The notes below the pieces were generated by a model. It had not been told where the DNA came from. It was given only the letters and a program-made list of their open reading frames with translations, and searched no databases. From the NCBI GenBank assembly GCA_044892505.1, contig CM097882.1:106516001-106580000 (forward strand): a DNA stretch of 64,000 bases, given 5' to 3'. Of the stretch, positions 6,279-50,486 are shown piece by piece. The translations under genes and the position numbers were made by a program. Source of the DNA: Schmidtea nova (Eukaryota). Positions within the stretch are counted from its first letter, which is position 1, and every line of letters begins with the position of its first letter.

Positions 6279-6359
6279 TTTAAATATTGAATTAAATTAA
6301 TATTGTTTATATTTGTTTAAACTGACTAATATAATTTACTTACAATATTTATTTGAATT

Positions 6360-6897: not shown

Positions 6898-6963
6898 TTG
6901 GTTAATTTTCTACCTCTTACTCGATTCTGATTGGTCGCACGCATACATCAACTAGTATAAATA
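6896..6963 (+). promoter_or_regulatory. Pol II promoter: two inverted CCAAT boxes and a TATA box
   Basis: GATTGG at 6896-6901 and 6929-6934; TATAAATA at 6956-6963, 39 nt upstream of ATG 6995. Confidence 0.65.
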
Positions 6964-6994
6964 AAAAGCCAAACTGATTCATAATCATTTTAAC

Positions 6995-14899: not shown

Positions 14900-15975
14900 C
14901 AAGAAAATTGAATTTCACGAGCAATTATATTCTAAATAATAAATATGTCTAAATTAGAGCGTACCTGAGGCAATGACTGGAAAAGGGGAAGTAGATTATA
15001 TACCTATCTTTGAAAGAGGAACCGTGTGTGAAAACACTACAACGAAAAAGGAGTTAAATCAGATTTGGGAGTACATCACGAACAATGGGAAATAGAAATA
15101 AGCTCGTGGTTAGAATGTGATAGTGACCACTAAGGACGACGCGACGGTGATAAAACATTACTGCTGTCACCGAAGGAGCAATCAGTGGGACGTCGAGAAT
15201 GTTAATTGGACAGCTGAAAATAAGGATTATGCAGATGGAAGAAAGTTACTTTTCACCCCAGGAAATGAAGACAGTGAGCGAGAAGTTAAGGCGTACCCAA
15301 CAAGCCGTACAAGACCTTAACATGGCGAAAAAAGCGCTCCAGATATAGATGTGGAATTTCCAGCGTCATTTAACTCAGACGTCTGTTCAAATTGATCTAC
15401 GAGGACAGATCTGACCGATAACTTTAGAAAAATTGTTTGTACCACCCACCTCCACTCCATCTAACATCGATGTTACTGATAGTCCCACAGAACCCAAGAA
15501 GCGCAAACGCATCAGCGCTCAAAAGAGAAGGCGTCAACAAGAGGCAAAATCTCCATCCAATTGCTCAACATAACTAGTTTCTAACCTCATGATTATCCAT
15601 GACAAAATTTTCTTGTGACCTGTTGTACCATGTTGTAGTATGTCAAATAAATGTATTAATTAAGGAAGGGTGTTGATTTACTCAATTTCATAGTTTTATA
15701 ATAAAATAGCATAGTGTACCTTCAATGAGAATAAGGTTTATGACTGAGAAAATTTGACAAATTGGTTTGAAGTAGACCTTATCTAGATCAAAGACCCATA
15801 AATGAGTGACCAAAATAGGGATAGCCAGTTATGAGATTAGAAGACCTTCTACCGGTCAAGGTGAACCCGTTGAGAATGATAAGTGGAAAGTAGTGTTAAA
15901 GCAGACACTAACCTGTCCACTTACAATCGACCGGCGTGTGCAGTACCAACGTGTACAGGAGGCTACATACACGGG
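14900..15975 (+). pseudogene. Degenerate A/B unit with 3' structured block
   Basis: About 15230-15575 reads SYFSPQEMKTVSEKLRRTQQAVQDL...DLRGQI*PIT...PKKRKRISAQKRRRQQEA (family B); 15843-15975 is a diverged copy of the conserved 3' block. Confidence 0.6.
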
Positions 15976-16609
15976 CACACGGACAGGGATTGTTTTGTGT
16001 GGTGTTGCAAACCCTAGTCTAATAAATTATAAACTCTTCAAAAATAAACTGAGCGACTCACCAACACTATTGTTATTTTATTGTCTTGGAATGTCAACTT
16101 ATAATTCGTTATTATGACGTTTTAGTATGAATATTGTTTTATTTGAATAATGAAAGTTTAAATTTATTATTATCTGATATGTTATGAAATTTCCATTTTA
16201 TAATCATTACATAGCATTTTTTTATTTTGCCAAATCAATTTTAACATTTGTTACACTGCACTCGGTTTCTTTTTTAGGCATAATTAGTTTTTTATTAATA
16301 ACAATTTTTAATTCCAAAAATTATATTCTTTAAAACATATGATTCAAACTATATTAATCAATAAAATTATTTTAATATTTTTTCTGAAGCATCGATAATT
16401 TTTATGAGCTATGATTCCAACATTCTGTAATTCAACATACTGTTTAAATTTTATATTTTCAATTTTATTTGAAATTAAAATTTTATAATCTCATTTTTAA
16501 ATTAATATTTATTAAACTTTTTTAATCAAATTTTTATATTTTTCTATTAACACCTCACAACATTTATCAAGGTTTTCATTAAAATTGTAGTCTTTTCAAG
16601 GAAAAAGAG

Positions 16610-18239: not shown

Positions 18240-19115
18240 TGTTCGGTTATTAGTGTGAAGTCGGTAGTTTCTGACTCCCGTGTTCTCTTTCAATTACAAA
18301 ATAAACCAAACCCAACACAATAATTTTCTTTATTTTTTTCAAATGATCACAACTCTTTTTATCACAAAAAGTTACTCAGGCTCTGCACTCTTCGCGTGAG
18401 GGTAGAACACCCAATGGGATATCTCCCTCTCTGGTACGTAAAATATTAAGTTCAAGTTCTACTTTTGATTTCCTTTCAACGTCTCCTCCAAATATCTTCT
18501 AACAGTTTGAGATTCACTTTACGCCTAAAATTTATCTTCGACCAACTGGCAATTTCGGCACTTTGCTCTCCGTTTTTATACCATCTTTGTGTTGCCATTC
18601 TGTCGGTGTAATTGGATATTATCGAATCCGTCGCTTGTAATCGGATCTGATTAGCCCTGCTTGGTCGTAACTGGACCTTTGCCGTTTATGGTTTTTCCGG
18701 CTCTCCCCGGGGCATTCAATTAAATTTGATAGTTTAATGACCTCGCTGATGCCTCGGGTTTCCCACATTATTCGGATCTCCTACTAGCTCGGGTTTCCCA
18801 TTATCTCGGGTCTCCCATTAGCTCGGGTTTCCCACTAGCTCGGGCTTCCTATAGAATAATTAATTATTTTAATTAATTTGTATTTTCTAATTATTTCCTT
18901 CTGGGGGCCCCTTTTTATTTTTATATACCCATATTCGAATTCGTCTCGTCGTTTGGCATCCTCCCATACCAGTTTCCCCCACTCAATTTTTATTTTAATT
19001 TTTTATAAATTTTTTAATTAATGTTTGAACATTAATTATTATTTTTCCAATTTTTGTATTTTTATTGATTTATGCAATTTTAAATTTATTTTCTGTGATT
19101 TTCACAAACCCAACA
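18240..19115 (-). repeat. 3' LTR
   Basis: Direct repeat of 23085-23960; contains about five copies of an 18-bp CTAGCTCGGGTTTCCCAY unit (about 18750-18855), a TATAAAAA and an AATAAA on the - strand. Confidence 0.92.
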
Positions 19116-20199
19116 TATCTCCCCTTTTTTAAAAGATTCGTCCTCGAATCTACATATAAACATATTTTTTATCATAAATCCTGACATTGATCCTATAATA
19201 GTAATAGTGATGATAATATCACCAATAATTGTAATAATAAGGATAACAATAGTAATAATTACAATAATACTGGTAGTAATGACAATGACATAAGTATAAT
19301 AATGATGATGGTAATAGTATTGGTAGTACCACTATACTGATAATAATGATAGTAATAATATTTATAATAGTGATAACACTAGTATTAATAATATTAGCAA
19401 TAGTNNNNNNNNNNNNNNNNNNNNNNNNNNNNNNNNNNNNNNNNNNNNNNNNNNNNNNNNNNNNNNNNNNNNNNNNNNNNNNNNNNNNNNNNNNNNNNNN
19501 NNNNNNNNNNNNNNNNNNNNNNNNNNNNNNNNNNNNNNNNNNNNNNNNNNNNNNNNNNNNNNNNNNNNNNNNNNNNNNNNNNNNNNNNNNNNNNNNNNNN
19601 NNNNNNNNNNNNNNNNNNNNNNNNNNNNNNNNNNNNNNNNNNNNNNNNNNNNNNNNNNNNNNNNNNNNNNNNNNNNNNNNNNNNNNNNNNNNNNNNNNNN
19701 NNNNNNNNNNNNNNNNNNNNNNNNNNNNNNNNNNNNNNNNNNNNNNNNNNNNNNNNNNNNNNNNNNNNNNNNNNNNNNNNNNNNNNNNNNNNNNNNNNNN
19801 NNNNNNNNNNNNNNNNNNNNNNNNNCAAATTTTAATCATCATATCAACAAGTAATGAAATATTTTTTTTGTCATTGCGCTCAAAATTGGAATCAATTTGT
19901 TTTCTTGATAATTGATACATCGTTTTAATTATACCATTCAACTTTCTTGCGCAATCTTCTGATTTCGAGGCTAAGTAAAATGAAGTCATTGCAACATAGA
20001 CTGGCTTTAACTCATTAATTTAACTCAATTAATTTCCTTTCGAAACCTGACCCCGAGAAAAGATGAGAGAAGGCGCCGCAAATTAAAGCGGCGTCGCTCC
20101 TTATTTTTCTCATTTGTCATGCATTTTAATTTTTATTTTCTGTGAGTAAAAAAAATTTTGAATTTATATATTTATTTATTTAATAATTTATATATTTAT

Positions 20200-21122
20200 T
20201 TAATTAATGTGTTTATCGTCATCCAATTCTTCACCTTTATATCTCAGCACTATAATTCCATCTTTACCTAACATTTCCGCAGCTCTTTTACACACTTTTC
20301 GAACTTTCGTACACCAGTGTTCCTCTACATACTCAGTTTTCCTAATATCTTCATATTCTATTGCAATTGTTAACGAATTTAACTCGACTCTATCTTTTCT
20401 AAGCTCTTTACCCAATTTCTCATTATTCTCTTTAAACATTGTCTATATCCCGTTCTTCTAAACAAATAGGGTCGTATAACATTAGCAAGTTCTAATTTTT
20501 CCTTTTGCCCAAATTCAGAATCCTCAATTAACTTTACTATCTCAATAATTTCATTTTCGTCACCAATATATAAAACATCAGATAACTCCCTAACTATTTC
20601 CATCGGATCATTTTTTATCATTTCACTGTTACTCATCATGCTGGCTATTTGTAATTCATTTTTATTCCCTGGTATGAAACCACAGTCGATTACATATTCC
20701 TCATTTTCTAAATCTCTATTTTTAAACTTTAACTCGACTACCCAGCCTTCACATTTCTCTCTTAGTCTCCTTTTTAAATCTTTTACACGATCATAGGCTT
20801 CACAACGACAAGTAATCACATTTTTATCATTTTCATTAACAACATCAATAAAAATAAAATCTAACCATTTATTTTCTCGAAACGATTTTCCAAATTTTCT
20901 CATCAATTCTTTAATTTCATCTCTATTTGTTACATTTATTTGATAATAATTAGCACACAAATTAATCACGCCTTTCAATTTTCTCATACTTAACGACATT
21001 TGACTCAGGTTTTTAATCGATCCCAATATTTTAGATGATTCTACCACGCTAGCTTCTAGTAATTTCTCAAGTCTTTTCATCATCATGATAGCCTTTTCGC
21101 TTTCCAAATCGTTTTTGTACAC
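20200..21122 (-). CDS. ORF(s) downstream of gag encoding two ubiquitin/SUMO-like domains
   Basis: IFIDVVNENDKNVITCRCEAYDRVKDLKRRLREKCEGWVVELKFKNRDLENEEYVIDCGF aligns with ubiquitin [55 protein letters not shown]; second unit TKVRKVCKRAAEMLGKDGIIVLRYKGEELDDDK in the overlapping frame 20200-20439. Confidence 0.6.
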
Positions 21123-22575
21123 CCAGTTGTCGTGTCAGCTTCTGGCATGTCTTGCTGCGATCCATACATCATGTGATTATCCAATTCATCATCAGATTCA
21201 AACTTGGACATTAGGCGCTCCAAACGTCGACTCATTTCTTTCACTTGGTTTTCAATCTTTTCATTGAAATCATCTGATTGAACAAAAGCCACGTTGTCTG
21301 TCTGCAGTTTATCATTTTGGAATCTTATTGATTGTTTTAATATAGGTTTCTGAAATTTGTCGACATTCCTCGGGCATGATCTAGCCATGTGTCCATACCC
21401 TCTACATGAATAACATTGAATTTGACCTTGAAGGTTCACTCTATCTCTTTGTGGGGATGGTGAAGTTGATGGAGACCTCGATCTAGCAAAACAATTTCGA
21501 GAGACATGTCCTTTCCTTCCACAATTGTAACATTGCACATTATCATTATTACGCTGATCCTTAAAATTTAGTTTATTAAAACTTTCTCACCATTACCCTT
21601 CAACCAATCTGGCCACATTCGTTTTCGGCTTCGTTGAACATTATTTTTAGATCAGCATTGATTGCTGTTATGTCCCATCCTTTGACAATAATCACACTGA
21701 ATTGGAGTTGGACTTTTCGGAGATCTATTTTTGAACCAACATTGATTAACATGGTGTCCTATTCGTTGACAATGGCTGCATTGAATTGGCTTCTCTTTTT
21801 CATCAATTTGAACATTTGTTGATTTATTTGGCTCAAATCTTTGCCTAAACGTTGGTGATGGACTAATTGATTGCTGAAGCCGATTGTTTCTGACTGGAGT
21901 TATGGACCGTTCTCTGGGTTCATTAATGATGGCAAATGATTCTGATTTTGGATGTGAACTTTTCAGATTTAACTCAATTTTCATCGCCTTTTTGATTAAC
22001 TCATCAAAGTTATTGAAGTCCACATAACATAATGCCTTTTTGATCTCCTTTTTGACTCCCGTTAAGAACTGGTCTTGTAGCAATTCTTTCACCTGCATTG
22101 CCACTTCAATCTGTTCCGGCTTTACTTCGAATGCTTTCTCTGCAAGAGTAGTCAAGTGGTACGCAAATTCACTTACCGATTCCTCTGATTTCTGCACTCG
22201 ATTATAGAACTTCTGCCGCATTATCCGTTTTATATCCCCTCCAATGAGTTTCGCGGCAGAGGCATCTTTCAGTTTCATCCAGTCATTAGCAATAGTTCTT
22301 TTGTCAATTTGTTGCCACGCTTCTCTCGCTGCTCCCTTTAGACATAGTGGCAATCTTTGCACCATTGTCGGTTGGCTCCATCCATAGGCTGTAGCGCACA
22401 TGTAGTAATCCGCCATAAAATCAACGAATTCCACCGGATCGCCTCCATATTGATTTACTGGCAGTTTCTGGCAGCTAGCATAGTCATTGCCATTGCCGTT
22501 ACTGGTGGACATGGGCGTGTCATCATGATTGTTTGTATTACTCATTTTTATTTCTGGTTGTTTATTACTTCTCAA
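21083..22575 (-). pseudogene. gag: Gag with four CCHC zinc knuckles (one nonsense change, one frameshift)
   Basis: Capsid-like YGGDPVEFVDF..W...L.L.LKGAAREAW..FYNRVQKSEESVSEFAYHL..LAEKAF; knuckles CSHCQRIGHHVNQC, CDYCQRMGHNSNQC, CYNCGRKGHVSRNC, CYSCRGYGHMARSC. Confidence 0.92.
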
Positions 22576-23084
22576 TTCGTAATATGGTCGGTTTGGTACA
22601 ACTTTTTCTCTTCTAAATTTTAATATATCTATTATAAAATTTACCTTTATTTAATTTTCAACAGTATAAATCTTTCCACAATTATCAACAAACTTTTATC
22701 AATCCTTGATTCAATTTACCGACTGCTCACGTCGGAATTTTTACTCAATTTTACAATTTCAACGACTCAGAAGTTTACTGCAACTTTCAATTTCTTTTGC
22801 CAATAAATATTTAATCTCTTTTTGGAAATGCTTCACTGACTTTTGATAAATCAATAGTTTTCTTTTAATTATCTCCTTTCTTTTTTTGCAATGCTTCACC
22901 GACTTTGATCATGTCGGAATTTATCAAAAATTTTGTTTTAATTCTTTATTATTATTATTTTTTTTTCAACAACGTTTCACCGACTTTGATCACATCGGAA
23001 TTTATCAATAATTTTCTTTTAATTCTTTATTATTTTTTTTCAGCAACGTTTCACCGACTCTGATCACGTCGTGCTCACCAAATA

Positions 23085-23960
23085 TGTTGGGTTATTAGTG
23101 TGAAGTCGGTAGTTTCTGACTCCCGTGTTCTCTTTCAATTACAAAATAAACCAAACCCAACACAATAACTTTCTTTATTTTTTTCAAATGATCACAACTC
23201 TTTTTATCACAAAAAGTTACTCAGGCTCTGCACTCTTCGCGTGAGGGTAGAACACCCAATGGGATATCTCCCTCTCTGGTACGTAAAAGATTAAGTTCAA
23301 GTTCTACCTTTGATTTCCTTTCAACGTCTCCTCCAAATATCTTCCAAAGGTTTGATATTCACTTTACGCCTAAAATTTATCTTCGACCAACTGGCAATTT
23401 CGGCACTTTGCTCTCCGTTTTTATACCATCTTTGTGTTGCCATTCTGTCGGTGTAATTGGATATTATCGAATCCGTCGCTTGTAATCGGATCTGATTAGT
23501 CCTGCTTGGTCGTAACTGGACCTTTGCCGTTTATGGTTTTTCCGGCTCTCCCCGGGGCATTCAATTAAATTTGATAGTTTAATGACCTCGCTGATGCCTC
23601 GGGTTTCCCACATTATTCGGATCTCCTACTAGCTCGGGTTTCCCATTATCTCGGGTCTCCCATTAGCTCGGGTTTCCCACTAGCTCGGGCTTCCTATAGA
23701 ATAATTAATTATTTTAATTAATTTGTATTTTCTAATTATTTCCTTCTGGGGGCCCCTTTTTATTTTTATATACCTATATTCGAATTCGTCTCGTCGTTTG
23801 GCATCCTCCCATACCAGTTTCCCCCACTCAAACTTTATTTTAATTTTTTATAAATTTTTTAATTAATGTTTGAACATTAATTATTATTTTTCCAATTTTT
23901 GTATTTTTATTGATTTATGCAATTTTAAATTTATTTTCTGTGATTTTCACAACCCCAACA
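23085..23960 (-). repeat. 5' LTR
   Basis: See element entry; the PBS lies 4 nt inside the LTR end. Confidence 0.92.
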
Positions 23961-24606: not shown

Positions 24607-27544
24607 ATATATATCTATATATATCTATATCTATATATACTCGTTAGACTTGTTTATTTATATATAAGAATCACCCCCATAGGTTGGAGTTTCCAATATA
24701 AGTATTAAAGACGTCAACAGTAGGCAGGTGGGCTATGTCAATATGATTGCTTCCTACTAATCTCCTTTAAACGGATTAATCTTTGTCGATAGAAGACTTA
24801 TTTTTTCTCTTAAGGCCAATCCTGGTCACAAATCTATCTCAACCTCAACACGTGATACAACTATTATATACAAAGACAAAAGAAAACACAAGTATATATG
24901 TACTAATTATACATAAATTCAACTAAATATTCTATTTACTTTATGTCACGGGTCCAATTCGCTTAATCCATATAAATACTCCAACTGACGCGTTAATTTG
25001 GCTGTTGTTTTCTGACCCTTCGTTCCTTTTAGCGCTCATAAGATATCGTTTAGGGGACACCGTTGATGGTTTCCCGACAAGTAGGTATATTGTTTATGTG
25101 TTGAGTAACAACTTCCGGGTACTAAATTTCAACGGCAGAATCTTGCTTGCAGACTCCTGTTCCACGAATTACTTCGTCATCAAATCCTTACAGTTTTATA
25201 ATTTGAGGCGTTCAATTTTAACTGTAACTCCTCGTTAACGCGTTTGGCTTAAATGAATCTCTGTTGGACCTTCCTCATGGCCAAAACTTGAGTGTCCTCA
25301 AACTCCTGAATTCTCCGTTTTATTCGTTCTTCAAAATGCCTATTCTATATCTCTTGCTGATAGGAAAATTTATTTAAGGCGACATATCATTACTGTAATA
25401 ACAAAATAATATACGAGCTTAAAATATGTGATATTATCATACAAATCCCACCTTACTCTTAATATCTACATCAAACTCCACTATTTCTGGTTATCTACGC
25501 AAGATGATCTCACCACAATTCCACTCGAATAAATTCTACTATCAAACTACTATCAAACATATTAAACAGTCATGCACAAGGAAAACTAATATATAAAACC
25601 AGACAACTATAATTTTCACCAAATACAAAACTTAACAGATTACATAGATATTTGTCTTTCATAGTGAGACTAAGTCTCTCTGACTCCGCCTCCGGGACGT
25701 AACGAGCATGCCCATGGCGTGGAACTCCATCTGTGGAATGTTTTTTGTATACGAAATTCCTCGGCATCCTGGTATGTCGTCTGTTATGTGATATTGATTG
25801 ATTATGTATGTTATAATTATTTTGTTTTGTTATTATAGTGTGTGCTGATGTGGAGGATTAAAGAGCCCAACAGTCTCCGGTAAAAAACTGTGTCGGGACG
25901 GTTGGGGTGCGTGTTGTGTAATTGGAATGTATTTGTGCGTGTCTATTTGTTACAATATAATTTAACTAAAAATAAATAACAAATAACTCAGAATTAATTC
26001 AACAAGATTTATTTAATTAACAAATTCGATATTGTACTCACGCAATAATTCTTTGTATCATACAACAAATTCATAAACATCTAATTCTTCAAATTCATAA
26101 AATTCGTTATTTTTTGTTATTTTCCTAAGCATTATTTTGTAATTTTTTCAAATTTGTAGTTTCTTTTATTTCTATAGAAATTTTATTTGATTCTAATACA
26201 TTATTGATTTTTATTTTGAATTTTAATTTGATATTTTTAATTTTTAATTTATTTTCCTTGAAATCATTTCTTCAGGCATATTTGCTAACAAAAAAATTAT
26301 AATAAAAGGGGGGTTATCATGTATCCGCAAGGACGCCCACAATAGTAGCGGTAGCCACAATAACAACAATAACATTAATAATAATAATGATAATAATAAA
26401 AATAATAAAAATACAGCATTAACATAGTCATTAATAATAAGGAAGTAAAAGGGACAGTCGGTAGCGTCATTGTCGACCCAAATCAACTAGTGCTGGCTTC
26501 GTCGCTAGACTATCTGGTTTTCTCTCTGTTCGTCCGACAGGAGTCTTTGTCCCTTCCCTATTTCCTGCTCATATTGTCGGAGCATCCGCTCAGTCTGATC
26601 TTCTATCAGAAACTGAAAAGGCCTAGAGATAGCATAACTAATCGCGAATAGAACCCTTAATCTCATGCATCAGGTCTTTCCTAGATATTATTCGCTCGAA
26701 ATTTTCCTATGGTGGCTACATTTTCATTTTTACCTACGAAAACTATTTTATTCAGTTTATATCAAATGAAGTACATCTACGCGATCGAGACTATCTAGAT
26801 TATTGCAAGTGATGTTGCTATTACTGATGAAATCATGAGTTTTCTCTTTTATTATCCTTATCCCAAATCGGGAACACAAATATTATATTTTAATTCGCGG
26901 TTCTTTTAGTTTTATTGGAAATTCGATATGTCGGTTGTATCTTCTGGGCGTGTTATCCGAAATACGATACCTAGTGTGAAATCAATCAGGGTCAATCATG
27001 TTTCTCTATGTTTTACGCCATTTGTCAGCTTAATGTGATGCTAATCGTAAATCGTTTACCTTTGTGATACTGTAGTAATCCTGTATGTGATATGACAAAG
27101 ACTCGAATCATTAGATATGACCGTGGCAGATTTATTCATTCAATATTAACAATTTTTCAATATCAATTTTGAGCTCAAAATTTGAATTTATTTGGAATTT
27201 CAAGGACTTACACTTTCCCCATAAATTACTTTCACTATTTTGTCTCACAACGCAATTTTTAAATGATGGTGACTACGACACATCGGGAACTTGTGAATGA
27301 GTAGCCTACAAAGTCCGTTTATACTAATTTTAATCAATCATGAGGGCACAAGTGAATTATTAATAATAAAATTTTAATAAAAGAAATAAAATAAAAATAA
27401 ATTACCAATTGCTTTCAGTTCACTAGCGATTTCAACAGAATAATTGCTAAGTTTCACTAAGTTTCACTGATCGTTTAATAAGTAGGCGGTTAAAACCAGT
27501 TCAGTTTTGTGTTAACAGTTAATAGTAATAGTTGTTAGACTGAC

Positions 27545-27996: not shown

Positions 27997-30390
27997 TAGG
28001 TGGATTGTTGACCGTCAATATGACCTTGACTTTGTTATGGATCATCATCAAAAACTCATCACATAAAACATTATTTAACCATCATGTTACCCACTACAAT
28101 GTAACGTGGTTAATGCAACAAATATGTGATATCCGCAAACAGTGAGCGTCGAAAAATTCGAAACTATGATTGTACGAATGTCACAATGAGATCAAGGGCA
28201 ATCGAAGGAAGGTCCTCTGCCATTTCGTCAGACGATAACTTCTTTATTTTCTAAATTGTAGTATAATTCGAAGCAAAGTTCGGATTCGGATATCGAACTT
28301 TTTGGAGTTACCCAATAAGTCGAGCTTCTTGACGCCGCTTCCGACGAAAGTGGACTTGTTTGCTGGGTCACCATTTCTTTGGGCGATCGATTGCTGGATT
28401 TCTATGTAGAATAATTCCTATCCGAGTCGGGAATAATTCCAAGGCAGAAAGCCCGGTTTTCGGCAGCTGTATTGCCAACACAATGCCTGTGTCTATCTTC
28501 ATTTGGGCAATCTCGGCATCGCGGTTTCGAATGGTCAGTTTCAGCGCCTATATCTGGAACGTATCTTCGGCTGTCTGCTCGTGCAGTAACTTTATCTGTT
28601 TGCACATCTTCTCGATACCGTCCACGTTCATCCACATAGATTCAATCTTTTAGCACCGAGAGCGGAATTTCTTCATGCGTTTCGTTATGGTCCGGAACTC
28701 ATCACAGAGGAGTTTCTTCTCCTCTTCCATCTCGACAAAGCAAATCGATAATCGCCTATATTCATTTCTGTCATTTTTGCCATCAAGTCCATTTTGGCTT
28801 CCATTTTATGTTTTAGGGATAAAGTATAAATGATAATTTTATCAAGCACATTTCCATGTAAGCATCCGCATTTATCTCTCCTTAAACAATCAATATCTTA
28901 ATGAAATAGCTCCTGAATTCCGGCTCTAAACGGCGCTTATTCCCATCTCCAAAAGGATTTATTTTCAGTGGGCGTTGAAAATTAGGATAAAATCTGTTTG
29001 AACTTAATTAGCCTTAATCTAAGACCATGACTATGTATTATAATTCTAAATTGTACTCAAATCAAATTAAACATAATAAAAAAAATTTAAGTTTGCGCCG
29101 AGGCCTTAGTAACAGCAACTGCGAATTACTTAGGAATTTTATTAGTTTTGAACCTTGGATTTCCTTTTTACCCTTATTTAAGTTTGTAAAATTATTGAAT
29201 AATTTAAATTATATTACGGTGTTGAATCAGGACTACCCTCCTTCGTTTTTTCTAGAGAAAAATCGTGTTAAATTATTAAATCTATATAACTAATTTTAGA
29301 TGGTTATCGAAAAATTAAGAGAATCTGCTTGATCAGATTATAGTATGTTAAGCTTTGTTGCATAATCATTTTATAGATTATAACTTATGTTAATTTTAAG
29401 AAAACGGATCTCTGATATCGAAACTGATGGCCAAAGAAGTAGCTTGAAAATTTTTAAAATAACACTGTTTACCATTAATATGTTTAGAATTTGGATTTAT
29501 TTCCTAAAAGAAACGTCTTCGGGTTCGGATTGAACAATTCGATATATTTAACAATTTCTCATGCATCTGTCACTAATGAACAAAGTTCTAAATCTCAGTG
29601 GATTTCACTCAATCTCGACCCTATCGGTGGAATTTATCAAGACAATCGCTCTCGGATTTTTCATACTCTCTCTGTGCTCTAATGGAAATCGATTTACGTC
29701 TCAGTTTATAAATATTACAATCGTAAATCAAGGCAATTTATAAACTGATATTATTATGATTTATAAGTACCGGTGCAATTCATGATTAATAAGGTTAATA
29801 ATTTTATGTGGGTCGTTGTAGAGGATGTCCTTAGATTTTCTATGTAATACAACCAGTTCTGTGGAATTTTATCAATTGACTAACTAATTTTTTTGAGTAT
29901 AATCACCAAATGCATATAATCTTAATGACTTAAAAATTCGGTCTTTCTACCTAATATAGCTGAAATTTAACGGGTGTTATGAACTGCAAAATGATTACTA
30001 CTATAGGATGTTATAAACGACAGGTAGAATAATTAATGTTATAGGATTTGATTGAATGAAATCTTAGATTTTTTTAAGCAGATTGGTTGATTTTATGGGT
30101 GCTTATGAATAAATGAATTCATTTTGGATGAATAAGATGTTATTGGATCAAACGTGTTTATGTGTAATATGCTAGATTTTATGGATGTTGGTGAATGGAT
30201 GAGACTTTTTTTGGATGCATGGAGTGTTATTGATTGAAACTTTAGATTTTTTAAATAATATAACTAAGGATTCAATGATTATTTTCTGTGTGATGATGGG
30301 ATGTAAGAGGTGTTATTCGGTGAAATATTTGTTGAGGTTCCGAGAATCTCAACCTAAGGTTCTTATATAAATAAATAAGTCAACACTGGT
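27997..30390 (-). mobile_element. C-type unit: D remnant, CCGAGGCCTT motif, family-C ORF, conserved 3' block
   Basis: C ORF about 28804-28300 (RMKKFRSRC*KIESMWMNVDGIEKMCKQIKLLHEQTAED...IDTGIVLAI...RRKRRQEARLIG); block 28220-27997 homologous to 45912-45693. Confidence 0.7.
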
Positions 30391-32992: not shown

Positions 32993-34646
32993 AAATCAAA
33001 TCGTAAATCATAAAACATTTTCATCGAAAATTATATTTAATGAGCAATGACAATAACAGAAAAAAATGATATCATAATAGCTTATATACAATCAAAAATA
33101 TCAAACTTCATACCTTTGTTGATCCAAATTGTCTGTTCAAAAATTTCAACTTTTAGCATAAAAAACTTAGGCCTTAAAATTGTCTGAATCTGCATCAGTA
33201 TTTATACTGATCAGATCAGTTCATTAACCAATCAGCGTGAAGCTGATGTTCTAACATAATTTTATTAAAAATAAAATCAATTTCATTAAAAAATAATCAA
33301 TTTCATTTTCTTGTTTAAATTAACTTAAAATTTCTTCTTTAATTCCTATTTTAACATAAAATAATTATATTTTAGACTTTTATCTTTCATTTTTTCGTTA
33401 CATTTCAACATATCTTATTTATTTCTAATCTTTTGTTGGGCCCGCCAAATCACCTAAAATCACAATAAAAGAACAAAAGTATAAAACAATAAGGAAATAA
33501 TAAACATAAAAATAACCATAAAAAAACAAATTAAAAATAAGAATAAAATGACAAATAATATTTGATAAGTTTCCAGTAAAAGGAAATTGTGAAAATAAAC
33601 CGGTAAACAACAGCAAAAGGGGGCCTGAAATAAGAAAAGATAGAATAAATTAAAATAATAGTACAAATAATTAATTAATTACTCGAAAAATCAGGACCAC
33701 CCAGCGAGAAACCGGAAAAGGAAACAAAATAATGTTTAGGTTTAAATAAAATAATAAAAATACTTTGATGGACGGTCTGATCCTGATTGGTCAATCCAAC
33801 CAGACGGATCAGTATAAATACCGATCCGAAAATCACAACTTTAACTTTTTTACTAAAACTTAACTGTTAGATAAAATTTTTGCAAAACGCACTTTTTACT
33901 AGAACCAATACCACAAACGTTTTCGAGAAACATTCTTAATTTTCAAACCCGAAGAAACATTCAAGTACGGAACGTAACATTTTATTTTATTTATTGTTTA
34001 TTTAATCTTTGATTGTATATTAATGTTAATGTACCCATGATTTTTCATCTATTATAATTTTATGAAACTTTTGATTTTTGCTATCTTAATTTATTAATGC
34101 ATATAGTTATGCTTCCTAGGCTGCTCACGCGGCAAGGGAGCCCGAGTCGTCGTCGTGGGGCCTCAGGGTCTCACATGGCGGTTCTACCTTTTTCTAAAAA
34201 TCATACAATCATTTTGAAAATCTCAGTTTAATCAACAAGTTCTACGTCGAAAGTTTTATTTTTGATTTTATAAATCCGGTTGCACAGTGGACATAGCGTG
34301 AGGGCTCGCGGAAAAGATTTGAGGGCTCCCAGAAGGTGTGAGGTTTACGACGAAGGGCAGGAAACCGACGACCGGTTCCCCCATTAGAATGCGTATATTT
34401 TAAACCCAGGAGAGTAATTGAGGAGCGAAAATTGGGTAAGAATTTACAATAAATAATCGATCTTGGTGAAAATTTCGTAGAGTCCAAAGTACACCAATAT
34501 GACTATCGATACAATTAACTTACAATTCCAAATTATGATGACGATTCGAATTCCGATCGTAATCGACGGAATTCCAATTGGTAATATAAATAGATTTAGG
34601 CCGATCGCTGTATATAGCGCGGTAACCTTGAATATTTTTATCCTGA

Positions 34647-35318
34647 ATGTCGTACATGGCACAGGGAAATGTAAAAGATGTTAATCCGACCGTGGTATAT
34701 CGCGGCGAAGACCAATTAGTTCCCTCAAAAGTTAAACCATTTTTCTCTACTGAATGCTATGTTTATTACCAGTTAATTCCCCGACAACAATTTTTTGGTT
34801 GCATCATACTTGCTCAAATGTTTAATAAACTAATACAGATGTCAACAGCTGATGTTATGAAAAGATTGACCCAAATTCGAAATTTGGAACAAGGGAGTGC
34901 AGAGAGTGGAACGGTCTCTCCATTCAAGGAGCTACCTGCGCCGATATTGCGGACCATAAATGCTCAAATGTACAAGTGGAGGCGCGGATTTGGTCGTAAA
35001 TGCCCGTTTTCCATATGGGCTGGAGGAAACGATCGGATACTCTACCGAGGAGGACCGAATTGGCCAATTTCACCAAGGCCTTATTCGAGGAAATTTGGGC
35101 GGATAATCATTATGATCAATGACTCAGAGGGACGACCGGGTCGAATAATTTATTGGGGACATATCCCTCGCCGGGAGTTATGCCAATTGGGACTACAAGC
35201 GTTTCTGCCGCGGAAACCGTTTGGCAAGGAATGTCAGGATGGGCAAACCCTATTTTCTTGGGCTCGCCTTCGACGGATGCCGATCAACAACGAACTACAC
35301 AGCCTATTTCGGCGATAA
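34647..35318 (+). CDS. Family-A protein of unknown function (true start possibly ATG 34840)
   Basis: PILRTINAQMYKWRR...YRGGPNWPISPR...RIIIMINDSEGRPGRIIYWGHIPRRELCQLG aligns by eye with 40503-41144. Confidence 0.65.
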   Translation: MSYMAQGNVKDVNPTVVYRGEDQLVPSKVKPFFSTECYVYYQLIPRQQFFGCIILAQMFNKLIQMSTADVMKRLTQIRNLEQGSAESGTVSPFKELPAPILRTINAQMYKWRRGFGRKCPFSIWAGGNDRILYRGGPNWPISPRPYSRKFGRIIIMINDSEGRPGRIIYWGHIPRRELCQLGLQAFLPRKPFGKECQDGQTLFSWARLRRMPINNELHSLFRR

Positions 35319-35499
35319 AATTTTCTGACAATGATAATTATAAATAAAAATCTTATTGTTTCTTAATGGTCTTTGTTTTTGAATTTTTGAATTATTAAGT
35401 CTATCATGTTCTCGACCAAAAAATCATGTACTCATATTGTAATTTTAAGCATATTTTAACCATAAAGCGACAAGGCAGTTATTTTAAATCAATTATAGA

Positions 35500-36033
35500 A
35501 TGAATACTGATCTGGCACAAAGAGAGTTGGAAAAGATGTGGCGAATCCAGAGAGCCCAGGACAAGGAAATGGGCCTCCTCAAAGCGCAACTATCCAAAGC
35601 CGAGGCGCAAGTCACCTATTTGCGAAAAAGCTGGTTCGCTCCGGCTAGAATGAAGGAACAGATTGGGAAAACCGAACGTGCCCAGCAAACCGCAGCCGAT
35701 TATAAGATGGAATGGGAAGCTACCAAAATAGAGCTTCGGAAATGCCTCCATTCAGTGACTGCCTCTTATATCGAAAGAGAATTGAGAGATCAAATCCGGC
35801 CGGTCACATATCAGGAATGGACGGCGGAAAAGAAAAGCGTCAACTCGATTGGCACGGACGTCGATGATCTCATTGAAGACCGAAACAAGCCAGTTCCAGC
35901 AATCAACCCGTCCACTTCAACTGCAAATGCGCACCCGAAACGCAAGCGCATCGGGCAGAAAAGGCGAAGGCAAAGAAAACTATTCGCGCAACGATTGCAG
36001 AACCAAGTTGACGGCCTGCACAAAATGACATAG
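35500..36033 (+). CDS. Family-B coiled-coil/Arg-rich protein (177 aa), intact
   Basis: LRKSWFAPARMKEQI...QTAADYKMEWEATKIELRKCL; tail PKRKRIGQKRRRQRKLF; AATAAA downstream. Confidence 0.8.
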   Translation: MNTDLAQRELEKMWRIQRAQDKEMGLLKAQLSKAEAQVTYLRKSWFAPARMKEQIGKTERAQQTAADYKMEWEATKIELRKCLHSVTASYIERELRDQIRPVTYQEWTAEKKSVNSIGTDVDDLIEDRNKPVPAINPSTSTANAHPKRKRIGQKRRRQRKLFAQRLQNQVDGLHKMT

Positions 36034-36330
36034 GAGGAATTATTAACAGAAATATTTCCCCCAGTCGGAGTTTTCACCGAACTAATTAAAGATTAAATAA
36101 ATTCTCGTATTCTCGTCAAATTTTTGTTGTTTACTTAAATTGGTTTAGTTAACTTAACGAATAATTAGATACCTGTAATATAAAAATATAAATTCATCAC
36201 ACAAAATACCTAAGAAAGGTAAATAAATAATTAAGTGAGCATTATGTTAAAAACCCTTCATGCAGAATAAGAGATGTTAAAGACAAATTTTCTGAAAGTT
36301 TATTGTGGAGTACATAAGCAGATGATTAAA

Positions 36331-36470
36331 GCGTAAGTCCTTCTAACGGCAGCAATGAACCCGTAAACATAAATGGGGAGTAGTACTAGCGATAGTGCTC
36401 ACCTGCCCATCATTGTTTAACCACCCTGCGCATCACCAACTTGATTATATAGGGAAATAGTCAAGGGCGC
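36331..36470 (+). ncRNA. Conserved structured cis-RNA element 3' of ORF B
   Basis: Homologs at 15843-15975 (+), 31119-30978 (-), 42779-42645 (-), partial about 56640-56690 (+); compensatory base changes in stems (see findings). Confidence 0.6.
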
Positions 36471-39400
36471 TTGAGTGTATAGTTGCAATTTTATGTATGA
36501 TCATGGATGAGGGATCCCTAGTCATTGTTAGAACATTTTTCATCTAACCCCTCCATGAACCCAGCACTTTTTATAATATTAATTATTTTATTTCTATTTA
36601 TTCTAATACTTTGCATTTAAATCTTTAGGATAATATTATCTTACTTTATCATATTTATTTTATTCTATTATTATTGTTTATTTATTTAAATGTTGGTCAT
36701 TTGGTGGACCCAACAATTTTTTGTTTTAATAATCATTAATTTTAGTTACCATATAATTGTGATTGACATTTAATTTATTTTTGATGAGTGTTATGTTTTC
36801 TAAATAACCATAAAATTCTATGGGAAAATATTATGAAATGAAATGATAAAAATTTCTTGAATTGTAATTTTATTTATTTTTATAAATTTCACATGCATAT
36901 AATATATACCCATTAGTATAGAAACCCGTATATACTTTAATTAATTTTGACTTCACGTGTTTTAAATATGAATTATTATGTTAGTTTTTCTTATTTAAAT
37001 TATTCCCAATCGCTATGTTCTCCTAAAAGCTATCAAGGAGCAAGATGAAATTATTATTTATTTCGATATGAATTTCAATATGAATAGCACTATCTATAAT
37101 AATTAAGAAAAAAGAACTAAGCTGTAATAATTTATATCATAAATTATTTATTTTTTTAATTATGTTTAATTTGCACTTTTAAGTGTTTTTTTCATTACTG
37201 ATTTGATAGATTTTTTGAAATTCCAGAAAAATTCGAGCACTAAGTGCTTTTTGTTTAAGCAGTAAATATTTAAGCACTTAGTGCTTTTAAATGAAAAGAA
37301 ATTTTCTTTAAACTAATAATAATTATAATAATAACAATAATACAATAATAATAATAACAGCAACAACAATAATAATTTTAAAACTACAATAGTTAAAACA
37401 ATAATAGTAATAATAATTTCAGCAATAGCAGTAATTTTAAACTAATAATAACAATATTTTTTTACAATAATAGTAATAATAATAATATTTATTTCACTTA
37501 CTCACACATTACTACATCTAAACAAAAAAAATTTAAAATCAATAAATTAAAGAACACCATCAAAACCACAGTTAATTTAGTTCAACAGAATAAACTTAAA
37601 TGATCAAGTTTTTCAAAAGTGGTCACGATTGTCGTTTCGTCATTGTTGGCTTGATTAGTTCCGCTTGTGATCTACATATATGTGAATTCTGTACTTATTG
37701 GTACCTAATGTGTAATATTTTAATTTTATTACACTTATGACACTTCCATCTTCTAACATATTTATTTCCTCTGTAAGCAATGTAACTAGTTTTATAGGAT
37801 TTTGTTGAATGAAATATGTAGTTTATAAGTAGTATAGTTGGATTTATAGATGGTTATGGATAAGATACTTAGTTTGGGTGCATGAGGTGTTGATTGATGA
37901 AATGATTAACTTGATTGCAAATATAGATGCTTGGGTCACTTCTTGATTTTTAGAATTGGTATTTTATTGAATAAAATATATGATAGGATGCTATTGGGAT
38001 TTTATAAAGTAAGAATTAAATTTAAAATTTATAATTTTTACAAAATGGTTAAGGTAAAATTGAATTTACAAATGACGAAAATAATCATGAAAAATTAAAT
38101 TTATAATTTTTGTAACAATAAGGGATTTTGGGATTTTTAGGTAACTTACAGATTTTTCAGATCACATAAAATTTTATTAATAGATTTGCTGTCTTTTATC
38201 TAGAATTTCGGTTGGAATTAATTTTGATTTAGATTAAAATTTTCCCATTAAATTATAAGTCAAAATATTCCAAATAATTCGCTTATAATAGCAATGGTAG
38301 TTAAATTTAAGTTTTTAATCTAAAATATTTTATTACCTAATTTTAAAAGTTGAAGCATACTCTAGTAGCTAGAGTCTAGCTAAATAAAATTAAAAATAAA
38401 TAAAACTCATCAACTCAAATCAACCCAATCACATTCCAAGTCTTTGATGCCATAATATAGAGCCCATAAAACGTTAATCGACACTAGGAGTTATAGTTAT
38501 CGGTTAAAAAATTTAATTGATATTGAGACATTTCTTTCTATAGTTTATAGTGTTACGCTATGCCTCTCACTTTACTAATTAATTTATCAGATCTTCTTGA
38601 TTATTCTTAAAATCAAAACGAAAATTATTAAAATTTACTCCGTTTCTCTGGTATCTTAGCAACGATACTAGTTAAATTATGGAAATAAAGAAGTCTAAAT
38701 CACCCTCTGGTTGTCAAAAACTCAAGTATCATACTGATAATTTAAATTATATCAAAAAAATATTGGAAACTTCTGATTTTTATTTAATATCAAACTCAAA
38801 TAAAACAAAACTATAAAAAAATTTATTTTTTGAAAATCACTAGCAAGTCGGTAAATTCTCCAGTCATACCGATTTTCATTGGTCGACGTCATTATAGAAA
38901 ATGATTTATATAATATAGATGTCAATTTGCAAAAAACAGATTCCCCTTTCATGGTAGTAAGATATATATGCCTTGTAAATTTATGAATATTATTTTATGG
39001 TTTTTGAATTTTTATGTTTAATGAATTTTAATACAATATGTTTGGTTAGAACAAACATACAGTGGCGGACTGACCCGGGTTGCCGGGTTGCGTTAGCAAC
39101 CCGGGCCCTTTCCAAATGTAAGGGATCCGGGCCCAATGTAGAATAAAAATATATATTTTAGTTAATACCTATTGATTTGTACTTTATGTTGGGCCAGGCA
39201 AATCAGGCATCATCTAGAAAATAATATGAAATCAATAAAATAAATGTACAAAAAACAATAACAAAATAAATTACCAACACCAAGGTAGCAAAATAAGCGG
39301 CATGATCTAAAGGTAATAAAACCATAAATCAAAACAACATAAATCTTAAAAACTCACCCATGCGAATCAGATAAAATCTGAAAATGACAGCATGTGGGCG

Positions 39401-45376: not shown

Positions 45377-48300
45377 TGTTGGGCCCAGCAAATAAGTAAA
45401 GTATCTAGAAATAAACAGTGAAAATAAAGAACAAATCAATAATGAATTACCACAAAGCAAATGATTAATCTAAACACAGCAAAACGTAAATAAAAATACA
45501 ATAGAAATAGAAACAAACCAAAAAGCAAGTAGGTGAACCACTCAAGATTGACAGTGAGTGGGTGAACAGCACCAAATACACTGATGATTCCGAAATAAAG
45601 ATAGAAGTTAACAATTAAATCAATAAGCAATATAAGTACACCTACTACAATAAAAACAAAACTACACAAAGTTAAATAATAACACTCACAAAGGTGGTGG
45701 GTTGTTAATCGTCAATATGACCTTGACGTTTCTATGGCTCTCATCAACAACTCAACACATAAAACATTTAAACTACCATCTTGTTACCCGTCACTATGTA
45801 ACGTTGGTGCTGTAACAAGTGGGTGGGTATTCGCAATCAGTGAGCGTCGTCAATACGAAACTATGATTGACCGAAAACCTCCTGGGTCCAAGGGCTACCG
45901 ATAGAAGGTTTAATGCTCATTTTGTCCCTACTATGTATTATTTACTTCAGAAAAACTTCATGAACTTCATTTACTATTAAACCTCAGTTGATTTTACTAA
46001 ATTTATTCCGTACATCACTTTATTCAATCCAATCATTCAAACCAATAAATCAAAAAAAACCAAGAGAAAACTTTAATGTTAGCAAAAAAAAACAACAACA
46101 CAAACTACAAAGAAAAATAAATAGATACACGATAAAATATTCCTTGTCAATTAAATCACAAATGAGTAATGTCTATTACGTCTGAAGATTCCTTGCGGAT
46201 TTGTCCCAGCAGTCTCGCTTCCTGCCAACGTCTTCGGCGAGCCCTCACCCCTTTATTGGGTTTCTGTCTGGCTGTTTTGGCGGGAACAGGAGGTGTCGAT
46301 ATCTGTTCCTCGACCCTCACTGGGAACAACTCTTGAGACAGGCAGGGTGATTTTGGCAGGACGGCAGCAATGAGGCCACTGTCCAATCTCAGTCTTTCAT
46401 TTTGGGTTTCCAATTCCCGGATTGTGACTCGGCACGCCTCATTGGTACAATCTCATTGCGTCGTCCGCAGCCTGCTGCAACAGCATCTGGTTTTGTTTGC
46501 GGAGTTTGTCGACGGTCTCTTTGTCCCACCACGTCGACTCCATCTCCCGGCATCGCGCTCGGAACTTCTCCATCCGAGAAGTCATGATTTGTAGCGCATC
46601 TGTATTTGAGGTTTTCGCTCTCTCCATCTCGGCGAAACACTGGTCTACCCGGCGATTATGGCGGGCATTTTCCAAAATTAATTTGTACATCTCTTCGAAT
46701 TTCTGTTCTAAATTCATTTCGGACATCTAAAAATTATACAATCATAACCCATTCCAGTCGTCATTTGACATTCAATTTCAAATATTCATTTTAAATCAAT
46801 AAAATAAAATCATTTTGATCGATGAACATTTATCGATTTTTTATAACCAACACAAAATTTATCTCAAATCACACATTCATTATTGCTTACAATGTTTACC
46901 CTCAAATATACCATCGCCAACTCAATTCGGGGATTAATTCTTCCTATAAAAATACATCTATTCGGGGACTTTCAATCGCTGTTAACTTTATCAAATTGAC
47001 CATTATACTCAAAGTGGCACAAATTTTTGTGTTTTCCATATTTAAAATTTAGAGAAACTTGAATTACATCTTAATCCTATTGTCTATCTTGCTTTATAAA
47101 CATTTTATTATTACAATTTATCATTTGGACTTTTCAAAAATTCGCCGAGGCCTTAGCAACGGTAATAATATACCTTCTATAATTTGCATGTTAATTTTAT
47201 TCTACTGATAATCCTCTTATTTATAAATTTTAATCTTTATTTCCAATCTCGAATCAAATTTCTAATTAGGAAATCCGATCTCAACCGCAACTCCTTCAAA
47301 ACCCTCAACGTTTCCCCGCCTTAAGGAAATTCTAAATAGACGGGTAAGCAAAATTCCTTGATTTCTATTGGGTAATTTTTATTATAACAATTTAAATTCT
47401 ATAATATAACTATTGATTTTAGGTAGTTATTTTTAGTAATGAGATTCCCCTCAATTTTGATTCTCAAACTGGTAAGTTACATTTAAATTATTAGTTTTAT
47501 AATTACAGTTTCCTCCTTTTAGTGGTTCAGATTTCCAAGGGAGAGTCATCATCAATTTCAATCGTAGCTCCAATCTTTAAAACATCAATTTTCTACTGGA
47601 GTTTTCAACTAAAGTAAATTTAACATTTTGTAGTTTAATGTTATGATTTTGACTTTTAGCTAAGGAAATTATTGGGAAGATTATGCGAGGGAATTTTTCG
47701 GGTTTTCGTTCTGGGAATTTATGCTTGGAATTTTATTATCCTGAATTTTTTATGCCTCACAGATGAACATCTTTATTCCTGTATGTACTTTTATGGTGAG
47801 TTATTCAATGATATTTTGTAATTTGCTCCATTTTAAGTTAAATAAAGCTTATTTTGTTATGTCTTTTTATTTCAATAAAATTTATACTATAAATTGTTAT
47901 CTGCATAAAACTGTTAGTTTCGTAATTCGTTTTTAAAGGGTATAATCAGGTATAGAGGGTATCTCCTGATAATTATAGCTGACTATTTTTCGGTATGGGA
48001 TCTTTGGGTGTAGCTTGCGGTATACAAGATGGGGGTGATTGAAGTAATGAGATTCGAACGTATATACGGTGGAATGAATGGTTATGTATGGATGTTATAA
48101 AATTTAAATAACTACATAAATGTAAAAATTTTTCACATAAATTCTGTGATACGGGACTTTATAGTCTGTCAATAAATAATTTTCGGTATTTGTATATGGA
48201 TGTTGTTTGTGGATGAAATGGATAGTTTAAATGATGAGGTGTGAAAGAATGAAACCTTTGCATAGTTTAGATGGGATATGCGTTTTTTATGAACAATGAG

Positions 48301-48720: not shown

Positions 48721-50486
48721 GTTTTTAATAAAAATAATATATAATATACGTAAAATATTTTCCAAATTAAAATAATACTAATAATTTTATAATGATTTTT
48801 ATAACTTTTTAAATTTATAATTTTATGAAAATAGTAAAATTTCTAAATTTTTATAATTTATATTTTGAATTCAAATTTCTATATTTTAATATTAATCGTA
48901 AAATTTTCTATAAAATCTCGAATTTGGAATTTTATAAGATGATAAAATTTCTAATATAATAATAATATTCTCGATTTATAATTTTTATGGATTTCAATAT
49001 AAGTTTTGATTTATAAATTCTTATAAATTTTTTGGTTTACAATTTTTCATTTTTAAAATTTTTGCAACATAATAAAAAGTAAATTTTTATTTTTTGATCA
49101 ACACGGAATCCACATAATAATAAAATCTTTATCCATAAATTTAGAAATCCAAATAAACATTCAACCTAAAAGTTTTATATACTGAATAAAAATAAAATAA
49201 AAATAAGTTATAAATTTTTCAACGAATATTTTTCGACATCGAGTAAAGTGAATTTCGGTTTCGTCCGATCATAAATTTCCCAACCAAAGTGCACGCGAAT
49301 TTTTCGGGACACTTCACTTAGGAACTTCAGGCTCACGAAAACAAGGTTTATTGGAAAATTATTTAGATGAGGAATGAGGTTCAATTCAGATCGATCAATA
49401 TTTGTCCTAATAATTCATTTCATTTCGTAATCACTATATCGGTTTTGAGCATTATTTCATATGATTCTTTTTTCAACATTAGCTTCCATTTACTTGCGTT
49501 TTCGGATAAGATGACAGTTGTTGCGAGAGTGAAGGCGACGACGAGTAAAATGTTCTTGCATAAATTATTTTTCATAATGGAAAAGACGTTGCTGGAGAGA
49601 ATCGTCTTTACGTTTGCATGTGGTGTTGATTTTTAAAAGATAAATGTCAAAAAATTATAAATTCAGATAAACTACATTTATTATAAATTAAATATCTTTA
49701 ATATAACAACTTGCCTTTGGCCAAGCCACTGTTCCCCAGTTGGGATGAAGTGAACATGGATGTTTAGGCTATTCATCTGGACTCGGAAATATGGGCTGAT
49801 CGATTTACGTATCGAACCAGCGATCCGCTCAGGCTACTTCCACCCGATCGGCACAAGGCCAGACACAGGCTTCAGGGGGTACGGAAGTAAAAAAAATTAT
49901 TTATTTGATAACTTTTATTTTAGAATATTTATTTGGTAACTTTCATTTAGCATACTGAAATTTATAATTATGAGAACCTGTGACAATGTTAATGATAAAC
50001 AAAAATTTATGAGATAAAATCATATAACTATAATATTTTCCTTATTGGTGGGTTGTTGATCGTTAATATGACCATGACGTTTCTATGGCTCTCATCAACA
50101 ACTCAACACATAAAACATTGAAATTACCATCTTGTTACCCGTCACTATGTAACGTTGGTACTGTAACAAGTGGGTGGGTATTCGCAATCAGTGAGCGTCG
50201 TCAATACGAAACTATGATTGACCGAATATCTCCTGGGTCCAAGGGCTACCGATAGAAGGTTTTATGCCCGTTTTTGTCCCCTTAAATTAACCGCTCTATC
50301 ACTGTAGATTATTCATACGAGATCTTCATTTGAATATTTTCGCTAGACTGTGATTTATTTATTAATTAATCAATGTATTTCAGTGTTTTTGTTCTTATCT
50401 TTATCCCCATTCAATCACACAAAAGAAAACTAATCGAAAACTTATAATTATAGCATAAAAATAACGACATTTATTACAAAAATCAC

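Follow-up and report, generated by a model that had tools for sequence, protein, structure and literature searches.

A multi-stem RNA with a possible pseudoknot had been proposed, from the letters alone, at positions 36331–36470 of the 64,000-nucleotide stretch of DNA analysed here (hereafter the window), downstream of a reading frame termed ORF B. The locus raises the questions of which element carries this RNA, whether its structure is selected, and whether it acts as an export/packaging element, a 3' stability element or a new ribozyme class, as this sequence-only reading suggested. The four copies then seen all exist, and a covariance model of the motif recovers 10 of them across the window (E<1e-6), 4 of which belong to the training alignment of the model. 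The surrounding genome is eukaryotic, AT-rich and 1.25 Gb in size; genome-wide, the 200 bases around the motif have 2396 first-look candidate matches, and 40 of these were scored. With the window copies, one by one, and two neighbouring LTR families as queries, we collected about 12 LTR families, named by window position.

The LTR and its host element

The RNA motif lies in a solo LTR (window 33434–36566, plus strand) of a giant Burro-like Ty3/gypsy element. Comparison of 20 copies, retrieved with flanks of about 9 kb, delimits an LTR block with sharp common ends, with a TG start and a CA end in 21/21 LTR copies and a 4-bp target duplication in 19/21. These termini, together with the target duplication CTTT on either side of the window copy, identify the latter as a solo LTR. 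In two long copies, LTR pairs that are 98.4–99.7% identical lie about 26 kb apart, and the full element measures about 29.5 kb. Pfam domains RVP, RVT_1, RT_RNaseH, Integrase_H2C2 and rve are found in one frame, that is, in the gypsy order PR-RT-RH-IN. The 14 frames scanned between the LTRs also encode a fusion glycoprotein (PF24664, E 6e-71), Ank_2, MATH_2, zf-TRAF, zf-C3HC4_3 and zf-CCHC domains, and no BIR or BCL2-like domain was detected in them at E<=0.001. The env-like fusion glycoprotein stands in frame between gag and pol, as in Burro elements. The 5' LTR is followed by an 18-nt primer-binding site (PBS) that matches the tRNA-Pro(UGG) genes of the same genome, themselves confirmed by ARAGORN; the distance from the LTR end is about 330 nt for the start of the first internal ORF and over 2 kb for gag. 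A 6–10 nt AT-rich spacer separates the PBS from the LTR end in every family seen (L302–L331). The tRNA-Pro(UGG) genes include a large tandem array with 308-bp spacing (L282, G000:C1:459.6 Mb), the genome contains 1113 matches to the tRNA 3' pattern, and one tRNA-Pro gene has a TAT anticodon, the 'Ile' gene being a Pro variant.

The window LTR and related LTRs themselves enclose two ORFs, in the following arrangement (all on the plus strand):

33785–33820, putative LTR promoter with a CCAAT box and a TATA box, about 350 nt from the LTR start; sequence arrangement shared by the F31, F41 and F42 LTRs
34647–35318, ORF A, LTR-encoded, a predicted alpha/beta protein of no known fold
35500–36033, ORF B, predicted long helices and an arginine-rich motif (from alignment and model)
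36222–36227, AAUAAA, upstream of the RNA motif
36331 to about 36521, RNA motif of about 190 bases near the LTR 3' end; in full elements, the PBS follows

The fold of a relative of ORF A has no clear match, the best Z score being 4.0. ORF B stops early in the window copy, at 177 aa, whereas most copies have frames of about 200 codons, without internal stop in most of the 150 matches listed. Its identity across families ranges from 14 to 61%, with 14–30% between diverged families. ORF B has no Pfam match, no PDB fold match and no homologue by word-index protein search; an ORF B profile gave 4 weak matches in gene models carrying a related domain, and these remote homologues keep the stretch RNRRRRERRR. 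One of these gene models comes from a related organism, since its host part matches this genome at up to 87%.

The RNA motif also occurs in an LTR family of about 1.5 kb (L246:2800–4330, L252–L276) that has a TATA box, a splice-donor-like site and AAUAAA and is devoid of ORF A and ORF B. This family has 3539 first-look candidates; AAUAAA stands at −128 to −140 in 17/23 copies, and no PBS was detected at any of its 25 loci. A pair of such short LTRs lying 29 kb apart was discarded as an element, as it encloses Polinton-like genes and not an internal region. Two other LTRs 26 kb apart (L042 and L043) have a common 5' flank, which suggests a local duplication and not a simple LTR pair.

At least 10 LTR remnants of several families are packed at 15–57 kb of the window in both orientations, many of them truncated or nested. 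On the minus strand, 18240–23960 is a small element with two LTRs of about 880 bp (97% identical over 300 nt), 17-nt tandem repeats, a PBS-like site, a zinc-knuckle gag ORF and two short ORFs, and no pol. A Polinton-like block at 5062–7468, with similar blocks in L037, L039 and L278, contains an A32-type ATPase (5667–6278, minus strand) adjoining a TBP-fold ORF (6360–6701, Pfam TBP, E 1.7e-9). Parvovirus NS1-like helicase fragments at 10800–11950 (weak Pfam match, E 0.048) have direct and inverted repeats nearby, and a MITE-like, near-perfect 95-bp palindrome at 14028–14220, present in several other loci, yields spurious miRNA-family Rfam scores.

Fold and conservation of the RNA

Alignment A2 brings together 42 selected copies and is based on sequence only. 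RNAalifold, run on A2, placed 17 pairs in the distal hairpin, the stem capped by GNRA and the helix AUGGG/CCCAU; 14 of these pairs have two-sided changes. A revised fold of 38 pairs is 83.5% paired, and 32/38 pairs covary. It holds 330 two-sided cells, against 121 ± 11 in shuffles, pairing stays at or below 41% when the fold is slid, and a model-fitted alignment gives 446 two-sided cells; these statistics are strong without being formal, as the fold was chosen from the same sequences and the copies are related. Covariation is seen in the distal hairpin, the long GNRA-capped arm, the stem under the distal hairpin and the small 5' hairpin, and P2a is only 61–66% paired. The evidence for an RNA structure is comparative, since single-sequence folding gives z-scores of only −1.3 to −2.8. 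The excess of G-U over A-C pairs (185 vs 99) and the GNRA loops point to the sense strand as the structured one. Among the unpaired columns, 17/75 are at least 90% conserved. The parts of the 36-kb copy are as follows (plus strand):

36331–36353, HP1, 5' hairpin with a 2–4 bp stem, a nearly invariant 7-nt loop (36341–36347; loop columns >=90% conserved) and a short variable outer stem; two-sided changes in 3/3 pairs
36356–36363, conserved single-stranded linker UGAACCCG, a box resembling a primer activation signal (PAS), complementary to the tRNA-Pro T arm (gene positions 49–56)
36364–36419, long arm P2 (36364–69/36414–19, 36373–77/36406–10, 36382–88/36393–99) with a GCGA loop; covariation
36400–36405, conserved internal-loop strand CACCUG of P2
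36422–36477, P3 (36422–31/36467–77); covariation
36432–36439, conserved bulge AUCACCAA between P3 and P4
36440–36465, P4, the distal hairpin, with its loop at 36449–36456; covariation
36489–36495, conserved UUUAUG; the reading frame that follows is short and not conserved
36515–36521, UCCCUAG, pseudoknot partner of the P4 loop, also complementary to the tRNA-Pro D loop

The other copies that the covariance model finds in the window are:

15834–15990, plus strand, F15 family, 127 bits
17785–17919, minus strand, partial copy (3' half), F17 family
24686–24807, minus strand, partial copy, F24 family
28075–28223, minus strand, decayed F45-like copy, 35 bits
30967–31122, minus strand, F31 LTR family, 145 bits
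42633–42781, minus strand, in an internally deleted F42 LTR, without the 3' part of P3 and the downstream box
45772–45919, minus strand, F45 family, with a 3-nt P4 loop and no pseudoknot
50123–50270, minus strand, F45 family
56570–56747, plus strand, F56 family, 5' part disturbed

There is a genuine RNA structure at this locus, and the fold first drawn for it is right in part only. The feature runs beyond the end first given for it, to about 36521. The distal hairpin at 36440–36465 is well supported (92.8% of cells paired, two-sided changes in 6/7 pairs), and the GNRA-capped hairpin was recovered both by RNAalifold and by the covariation count. The three-way junction has to be given up: its supposed closing stem, GGCAG/CUGCC, shows 1 two-sided change in 210 cells (A2, 42 copies), and the CCCGU/AUGGG stem is 65.5% paired, whereas the rival helix AUGGG/CCCAU, found unprompted by RNAalifold, is 88.5% paired with 59 two-sided changes.

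The P4 loop had been proposed to pair with CCCU/CCUUG upstream; a better partner is CCCUA about 50 nt downstream (39–52 nt past P4). From 131 copies found, 18 with a distal stem shorter than 5 bp were dropped and 113 were scored: at least five Watson-Crick pairs form with the upstream partner in 2/113 copies, both corresponding to the 31-kb window copy, versus 73 with the downstream box. The change from AGGG to AAGG in the loop, which had been taken for covariation between the 36-kb and 31-kb copies, is a private mutation, since 13/16 copies filed under F31 read CCAGGGA. By family, at least five Watson-Crick pairs with the downstream box are found in F36 (29/30), F31 (13/16), F42 (7/9), F41 (11/11), F56 (5/6), F15 (7/15, 3 of them misfiled) and F45 (1/18), and in 0/8 of the others. 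Between F41 (GUUAGGG/CCCUAAC) and F56 (AUUAGGG/CCCUAAU) a G-C pair has become A-U, and the F15 strands differ again (AGGCUA/UAGCCU). As five-pair duplexes arise in 16–75% of shuffles and the cross-family score matrix is not diagonal, the case for the pseudoknot rests on its fixed position and on the strand changes. F45, with its 3-nt loop and no pseudoknot, indicates that this contact is optional. An alternative pseudoknot with the 5' CCUUCU was dropped, as was a kink-turn or loop-E motif, because the bases concerned belong to covarying helices.

Of the LTR parts measured here, the RNA is the one that varies least. Compared with the window copy, 29 loci chosen on ORF B are 98.8% identical in the RNA core, 90.7% in ORF B and 87.2% in the spacer, and the corresponding values for 10 F41 loci are 98.7, 90.1 and 87.8%. 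Judged from these comparisons, the RNA core is under strong purifying selection; the proposal of a selected RNA structure is borne out by covariation and by about eightfold fewer differences than in ORF B.

Searches for known RNAs gave no relevant result. The Rfam search suggested by the sequence-only reading was run on the whole window and as a focused search, and returned no matching family (E<=5, E<=10). A selenocysteine-insertion (SECIS) core, AUGA-N11/12-AAR...GA, is present in 1/8 family representatives and is not conserved. On either strand, ARAGORN found no tRNA fold and the B-box pattern occurs in 0/8 family representatives, which argues against a tRNA-derived SINE or Pol III RNA. Pattern matches outside this genome, 12 in metagenome contigs and 1 in viral contigs, were attributed to chance, as they have no helices and no model match. 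The depth of four contig sets on the LTR peaks over the motif, but contigs cannot show transcript ends, and we do not count this as evidence. The stretch CUCACCUG, conserved at window 36397–36405 except for the loss of one C in F45, could pair with a splice donor: its reverse complement is the 5' splice-site consensus, and it resembles the 5' end of U1 snRNA.

Linkage to the PBS and complementarity to tRNA-Pro

The genome contains 2940 exact copies of the PBS. The first 30, picked by the exact tRNA-Pro PBS only, all have the motif upstream in sense orientation (30/30 loci, 20 of them supplied by F45); it ends about 85–135 nt upstream of the PBS, the distance from linker to PBS being 206–259 nt. 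In three long elements the covariance model matches the LTRs only, and the motif is found downstream in 4/4 loci reached through the ORF-B-like part of the remote homologue P0004.

In the window copy, the linker at 36356–36363 is the exact reverse complement of positions 49–56 of tRNA-Pro(UGG), with 8/8 pairs, and its target is the part of the tRNA freed when the tRNA 3' end anneals to the PBS. The linker was paired with the first 57 nt of the tRNA in 222 distinct family-assigned copies, which are related so that the counts are not independent events; its best duplex is with the T arm in 128/222 and with the D arm in 53/222, 49 of the latter being F45. The linker forms on average 7.0–7.9 Watson-Crick pairs in F36, F31, F42, F41 and F45, against 5.2–5.5 for shuffled tRNA, and 5.5–6.7 in F15, F56, Fx2 and F17/24. 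The F45 linker makes 11 pairs with the D arm and 8 with the T arm, and in F17/24 the T arm is chosen in 1/21 only. In the most frequent linker variants, pairing is retained through G-U wobbles. The T loop, which all tRNAs have in common, accounts for half of the linker match.

Downstream, CCCUAR is present in 113/222 copies versus 20 in an upstream control window, and a box complementary to the D loop in 97/222 versus 34/222. This box beats shuffles in F36, F31, F42 and Fx2 only, and not in F15, F41, F56, F45 and F17/24. The letters UAGGG of the D loop recur in the P4 loop; the pseudoknot and the D-loop contact would therefore be mutually exclusive, which suggests a switch. The CCAA of the bulge matches the anticodon loop over 4 nt, too short to weigh, and an equally long alternative exists. 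All PBS-linked families share one tRNA, the 30/30 loci having been selected on that primer, and no compensatory change was seen in the tRNA contacts, as every PBS-adjacent family has the same tRNA; an element with a different primer did not turn up. The prediction that F45 uses another primer failed. No PBS was seen at 35 F45 ends chosen for a TGG downstream.

We propose that the motif is a leader platform that docks the primer tRNA-Pro and gates the start of reverse transcription, a reading to which we assign a probability of roughly 0.55. The motif would be transcribed as part of the 5' leader of the unspliced genomic RNA and act there. Upon annealing of the 3' 18 nt of the tRNA to the PBS, the freed T arm could pair with the linker, as in HIV primer activation, and the D loop with the downstream CCCUAG box, which would beforehand be held in the pseudoknot by the UAGGG of the P4 loop, which copies the D loop. 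A further contact might join the CCAA bulge to the UGG anticodon loop, and the folded leader may also be the site by which Gag recognizes the genomic RNA, so that the pairings, if formed, could control initiation or packaging. Solo-LTR copies, including that of the window, have no PBS and would be inert remnants. This docking model leaves the invariant HP1 loop and the CACCUG loop unexplained. The earlier suggestion of an export/packaging element pointed in the right direction, towards an element that acts in cis within the LTR of a retroelement, a short way upstream of the PBS, and missed the LTR, the PBS link and the tRNA complementarity themselves.

A bolder version, possible if doubtful, is a tRNA-sensing RNA switch in the LTR that would read the T arm, D loop and anticodon beyond the PBS, hide its D-loop site by its own mimic and have the LTR-encoded Rev-like protein as partner. 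If so, Burro would be an env-bearing invertebrate retroelement with RNA regulation in the style of complex retroviruses, of independent origin.

Alternative explanations and comparison with known systems

The arginine-rich protein encoded next to the motif invites comparison with Rev/Rex-type response elements: a short LTR transcript that stops at the AAUAAA following ORF B would yield the ORF B protein, which would bind the internal loops through its arginine-rich motif and license export or read-through of unspliced RNA. ORF B combines long helices with a conserved arginine-rich stretch, an architecture like that of Rev-like proteins (PMC5568270, available part). Its remote homologues preserve RNRRRRERRR, the motif stands downstream in all four P0004 loci, and, by eye, a splice-donor-like site close to the TATA box precedes the motif. 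Such a role is compatible with tRNA docking and does not exclude it. However, ORF B has no homology to any Rev-like protein, and the motif is kept in the LTR family without ORFs, even if service in trans is possible. Moreover, ORF B diverges to 14–30% identity across families while the RNA loops are invariant, for which an unchanging host partner is a better fit. We thus consider this explanation rather unlikely. Also unlikely, and more so, is that the motif governs the choice of poly(A) site between two identical LTRs, either through silencing of the upstream AAUAAA of the 5' LTR or through a loop that brings the AAUAAA to a cleavage site before the UUUAUG tract, with CUCACCUG possibly mimicking the U1 snRNA 5' end. 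AAUAAA does precede the motif, in ORF-less LTRs too (17/23), a U/GU-rich tract follows, and CUCACCUG reads as the reverse complement of the 5' splice-site consensus; foamy viruses choose their site by RNA structure and U1 (PMC3694450, available part). Nevertheless, F45 has lost one C of CUCACCUG, and this explanation would leave the tRNA-complementary linker unaccounted for.

A GNRA loop, a pseudoknot and a number of unpaired segments that do not vary would suit a self-cleaving ribozyme that belongs to a class not yet described and processes the element RNA, comparable to the hammerheads of plant retrozymes, whose LTRs carry ribozymes (PMC6765202, available part). This is quite improbable. The motif has no Rfam match, and cleavage would presumably part R from the PBS even though R is needed for strand transfer. 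As already noted by eye for hammerhead, HDV-like and twister, the cores of these and of twister-sister, pistol, hatchet and hairpin ribozymes are found on neither strand in any of the family representatives (0/8). Known small self-cleaving ribozymes are shorter than the 150–190 nt of the motif. The new ribozyme class once suggested is therefore left without positive support. A highly improbable role is that of an IRES or uORF control element for the genes behind the 3-kb two-ORF leader: the leader is long and an AUG lies just 3' of the fold in 46/46 F36, 13/13 F41 and 21/24 F45 copies, but this conserved AUG opens short, non-conserved frames only, the first internal ORF lies about 330 nt and gag over 2 kb from the LTR end, and splicing could serve both. 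Finally, the motif follows ORF B in all ORF-bearing families examined, as would a 3' stability element acting on its mRNA; since AAUAAA precedes the motif, ORF-less LTRs keep it, it is tightly linked to the PBS and no ENE-type U-rich internal loop is present, we give this proposal of the sequence-only reading next to no weight.

Detailed knowledge of priming and packaging leader structures is confined to a few retroviruses and Ty1, and the RNA structure of Ty3 has been called uncharacterised (PMC4974528, available part). The thousands of natural copies and dozen diverged families that the element supplies are sufficient to derive a structure by covariation, and they name nucleotides whose predicted pairing with the host tRNA could be tested in vitro on a 300-nt RNA. 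Being so well conserved, the motif may be used to find and classify Burro LTRs, and, taken with the arginine-rich protein of the LTR, it is relevant to the question whether Burro elements are complex proviruses. The literature covered does not describe this RNA; LTR features may be treated in the first Burro description, which lay outside that coverage.

The host element comes closest to Burro/GYPSM1, giant gypsy-like LTR retrotransposons of planarians, with which it shares the size of about 30 kb, protease, RT, RNase H, integrase and a CCHC knuckle, as well as fusion glycoprotein homology in frame with pol and ankyrin, RING and TRAF/MATH domains; the LTR RNA structure and the two LTR ORFs are absent from the available part of the published description of Burro (PMC6431247). 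In HIV-1, the PAS targets the 5' T arm of the primer by base pairing, and the A-loop its anticodon (PMC11251516, available part). The motif has in common with this system a short T-arm complement upstream of the PBS and a possible anticodon-loop contact, and differs in its position 206–259 nt upstream of the PBS, its multi-helix fold, the absence of sequence similarity, the use of tRNA-Pro and a predicted D-loop-complementary box held in a pseudoknot. Ty1 has T- and D-arm boxes (Box 0/1/2.1) and a 5' pseudoknot, the Box 2.1 contact not having been confirmed in virio, and Ty3 has a bipartite PBS; the motif would share with these LTR retrotransposons extended primer pairing through the T/D arms and a structured 5' end whose pseudoknot is required for reverse transcription (PMC4974528, PMC3592414, available parts). 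As far as these texts tell, the Ty1 boxes are 3' of a short PBS inside GAG and those of Ty3 in the 3' UTR, whereas in the present element the PBS has its full 18 nt and the extra boxes are within the LTR.

Among retroviral response elements, RxRE and RcRE are located in the LTR. The Rev/RRE, Rex/RxRE and Rec/RcRE pairs resemble the present locus in that a small helical protein with an arginine-rich motif is encoded beside a structured LTR RNA (PMC5568270, available part), but here, where the system is known from sequence, there is neither sequence nor fold homology and the RNA is kept in LTRs without the ORF. Retrozyme and Penelope hammerheads likewise place a structured RNA inside an LTR (PMC6765202, available part), whereas the Burro-like motif has no hammerhead core, belongs to an element autonomous in design and is tied to the PBS. 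From these comparisons, the motif appears to resemble retroviral and Ty leader elements in its predicted action, and yet it fits no described RNA family.
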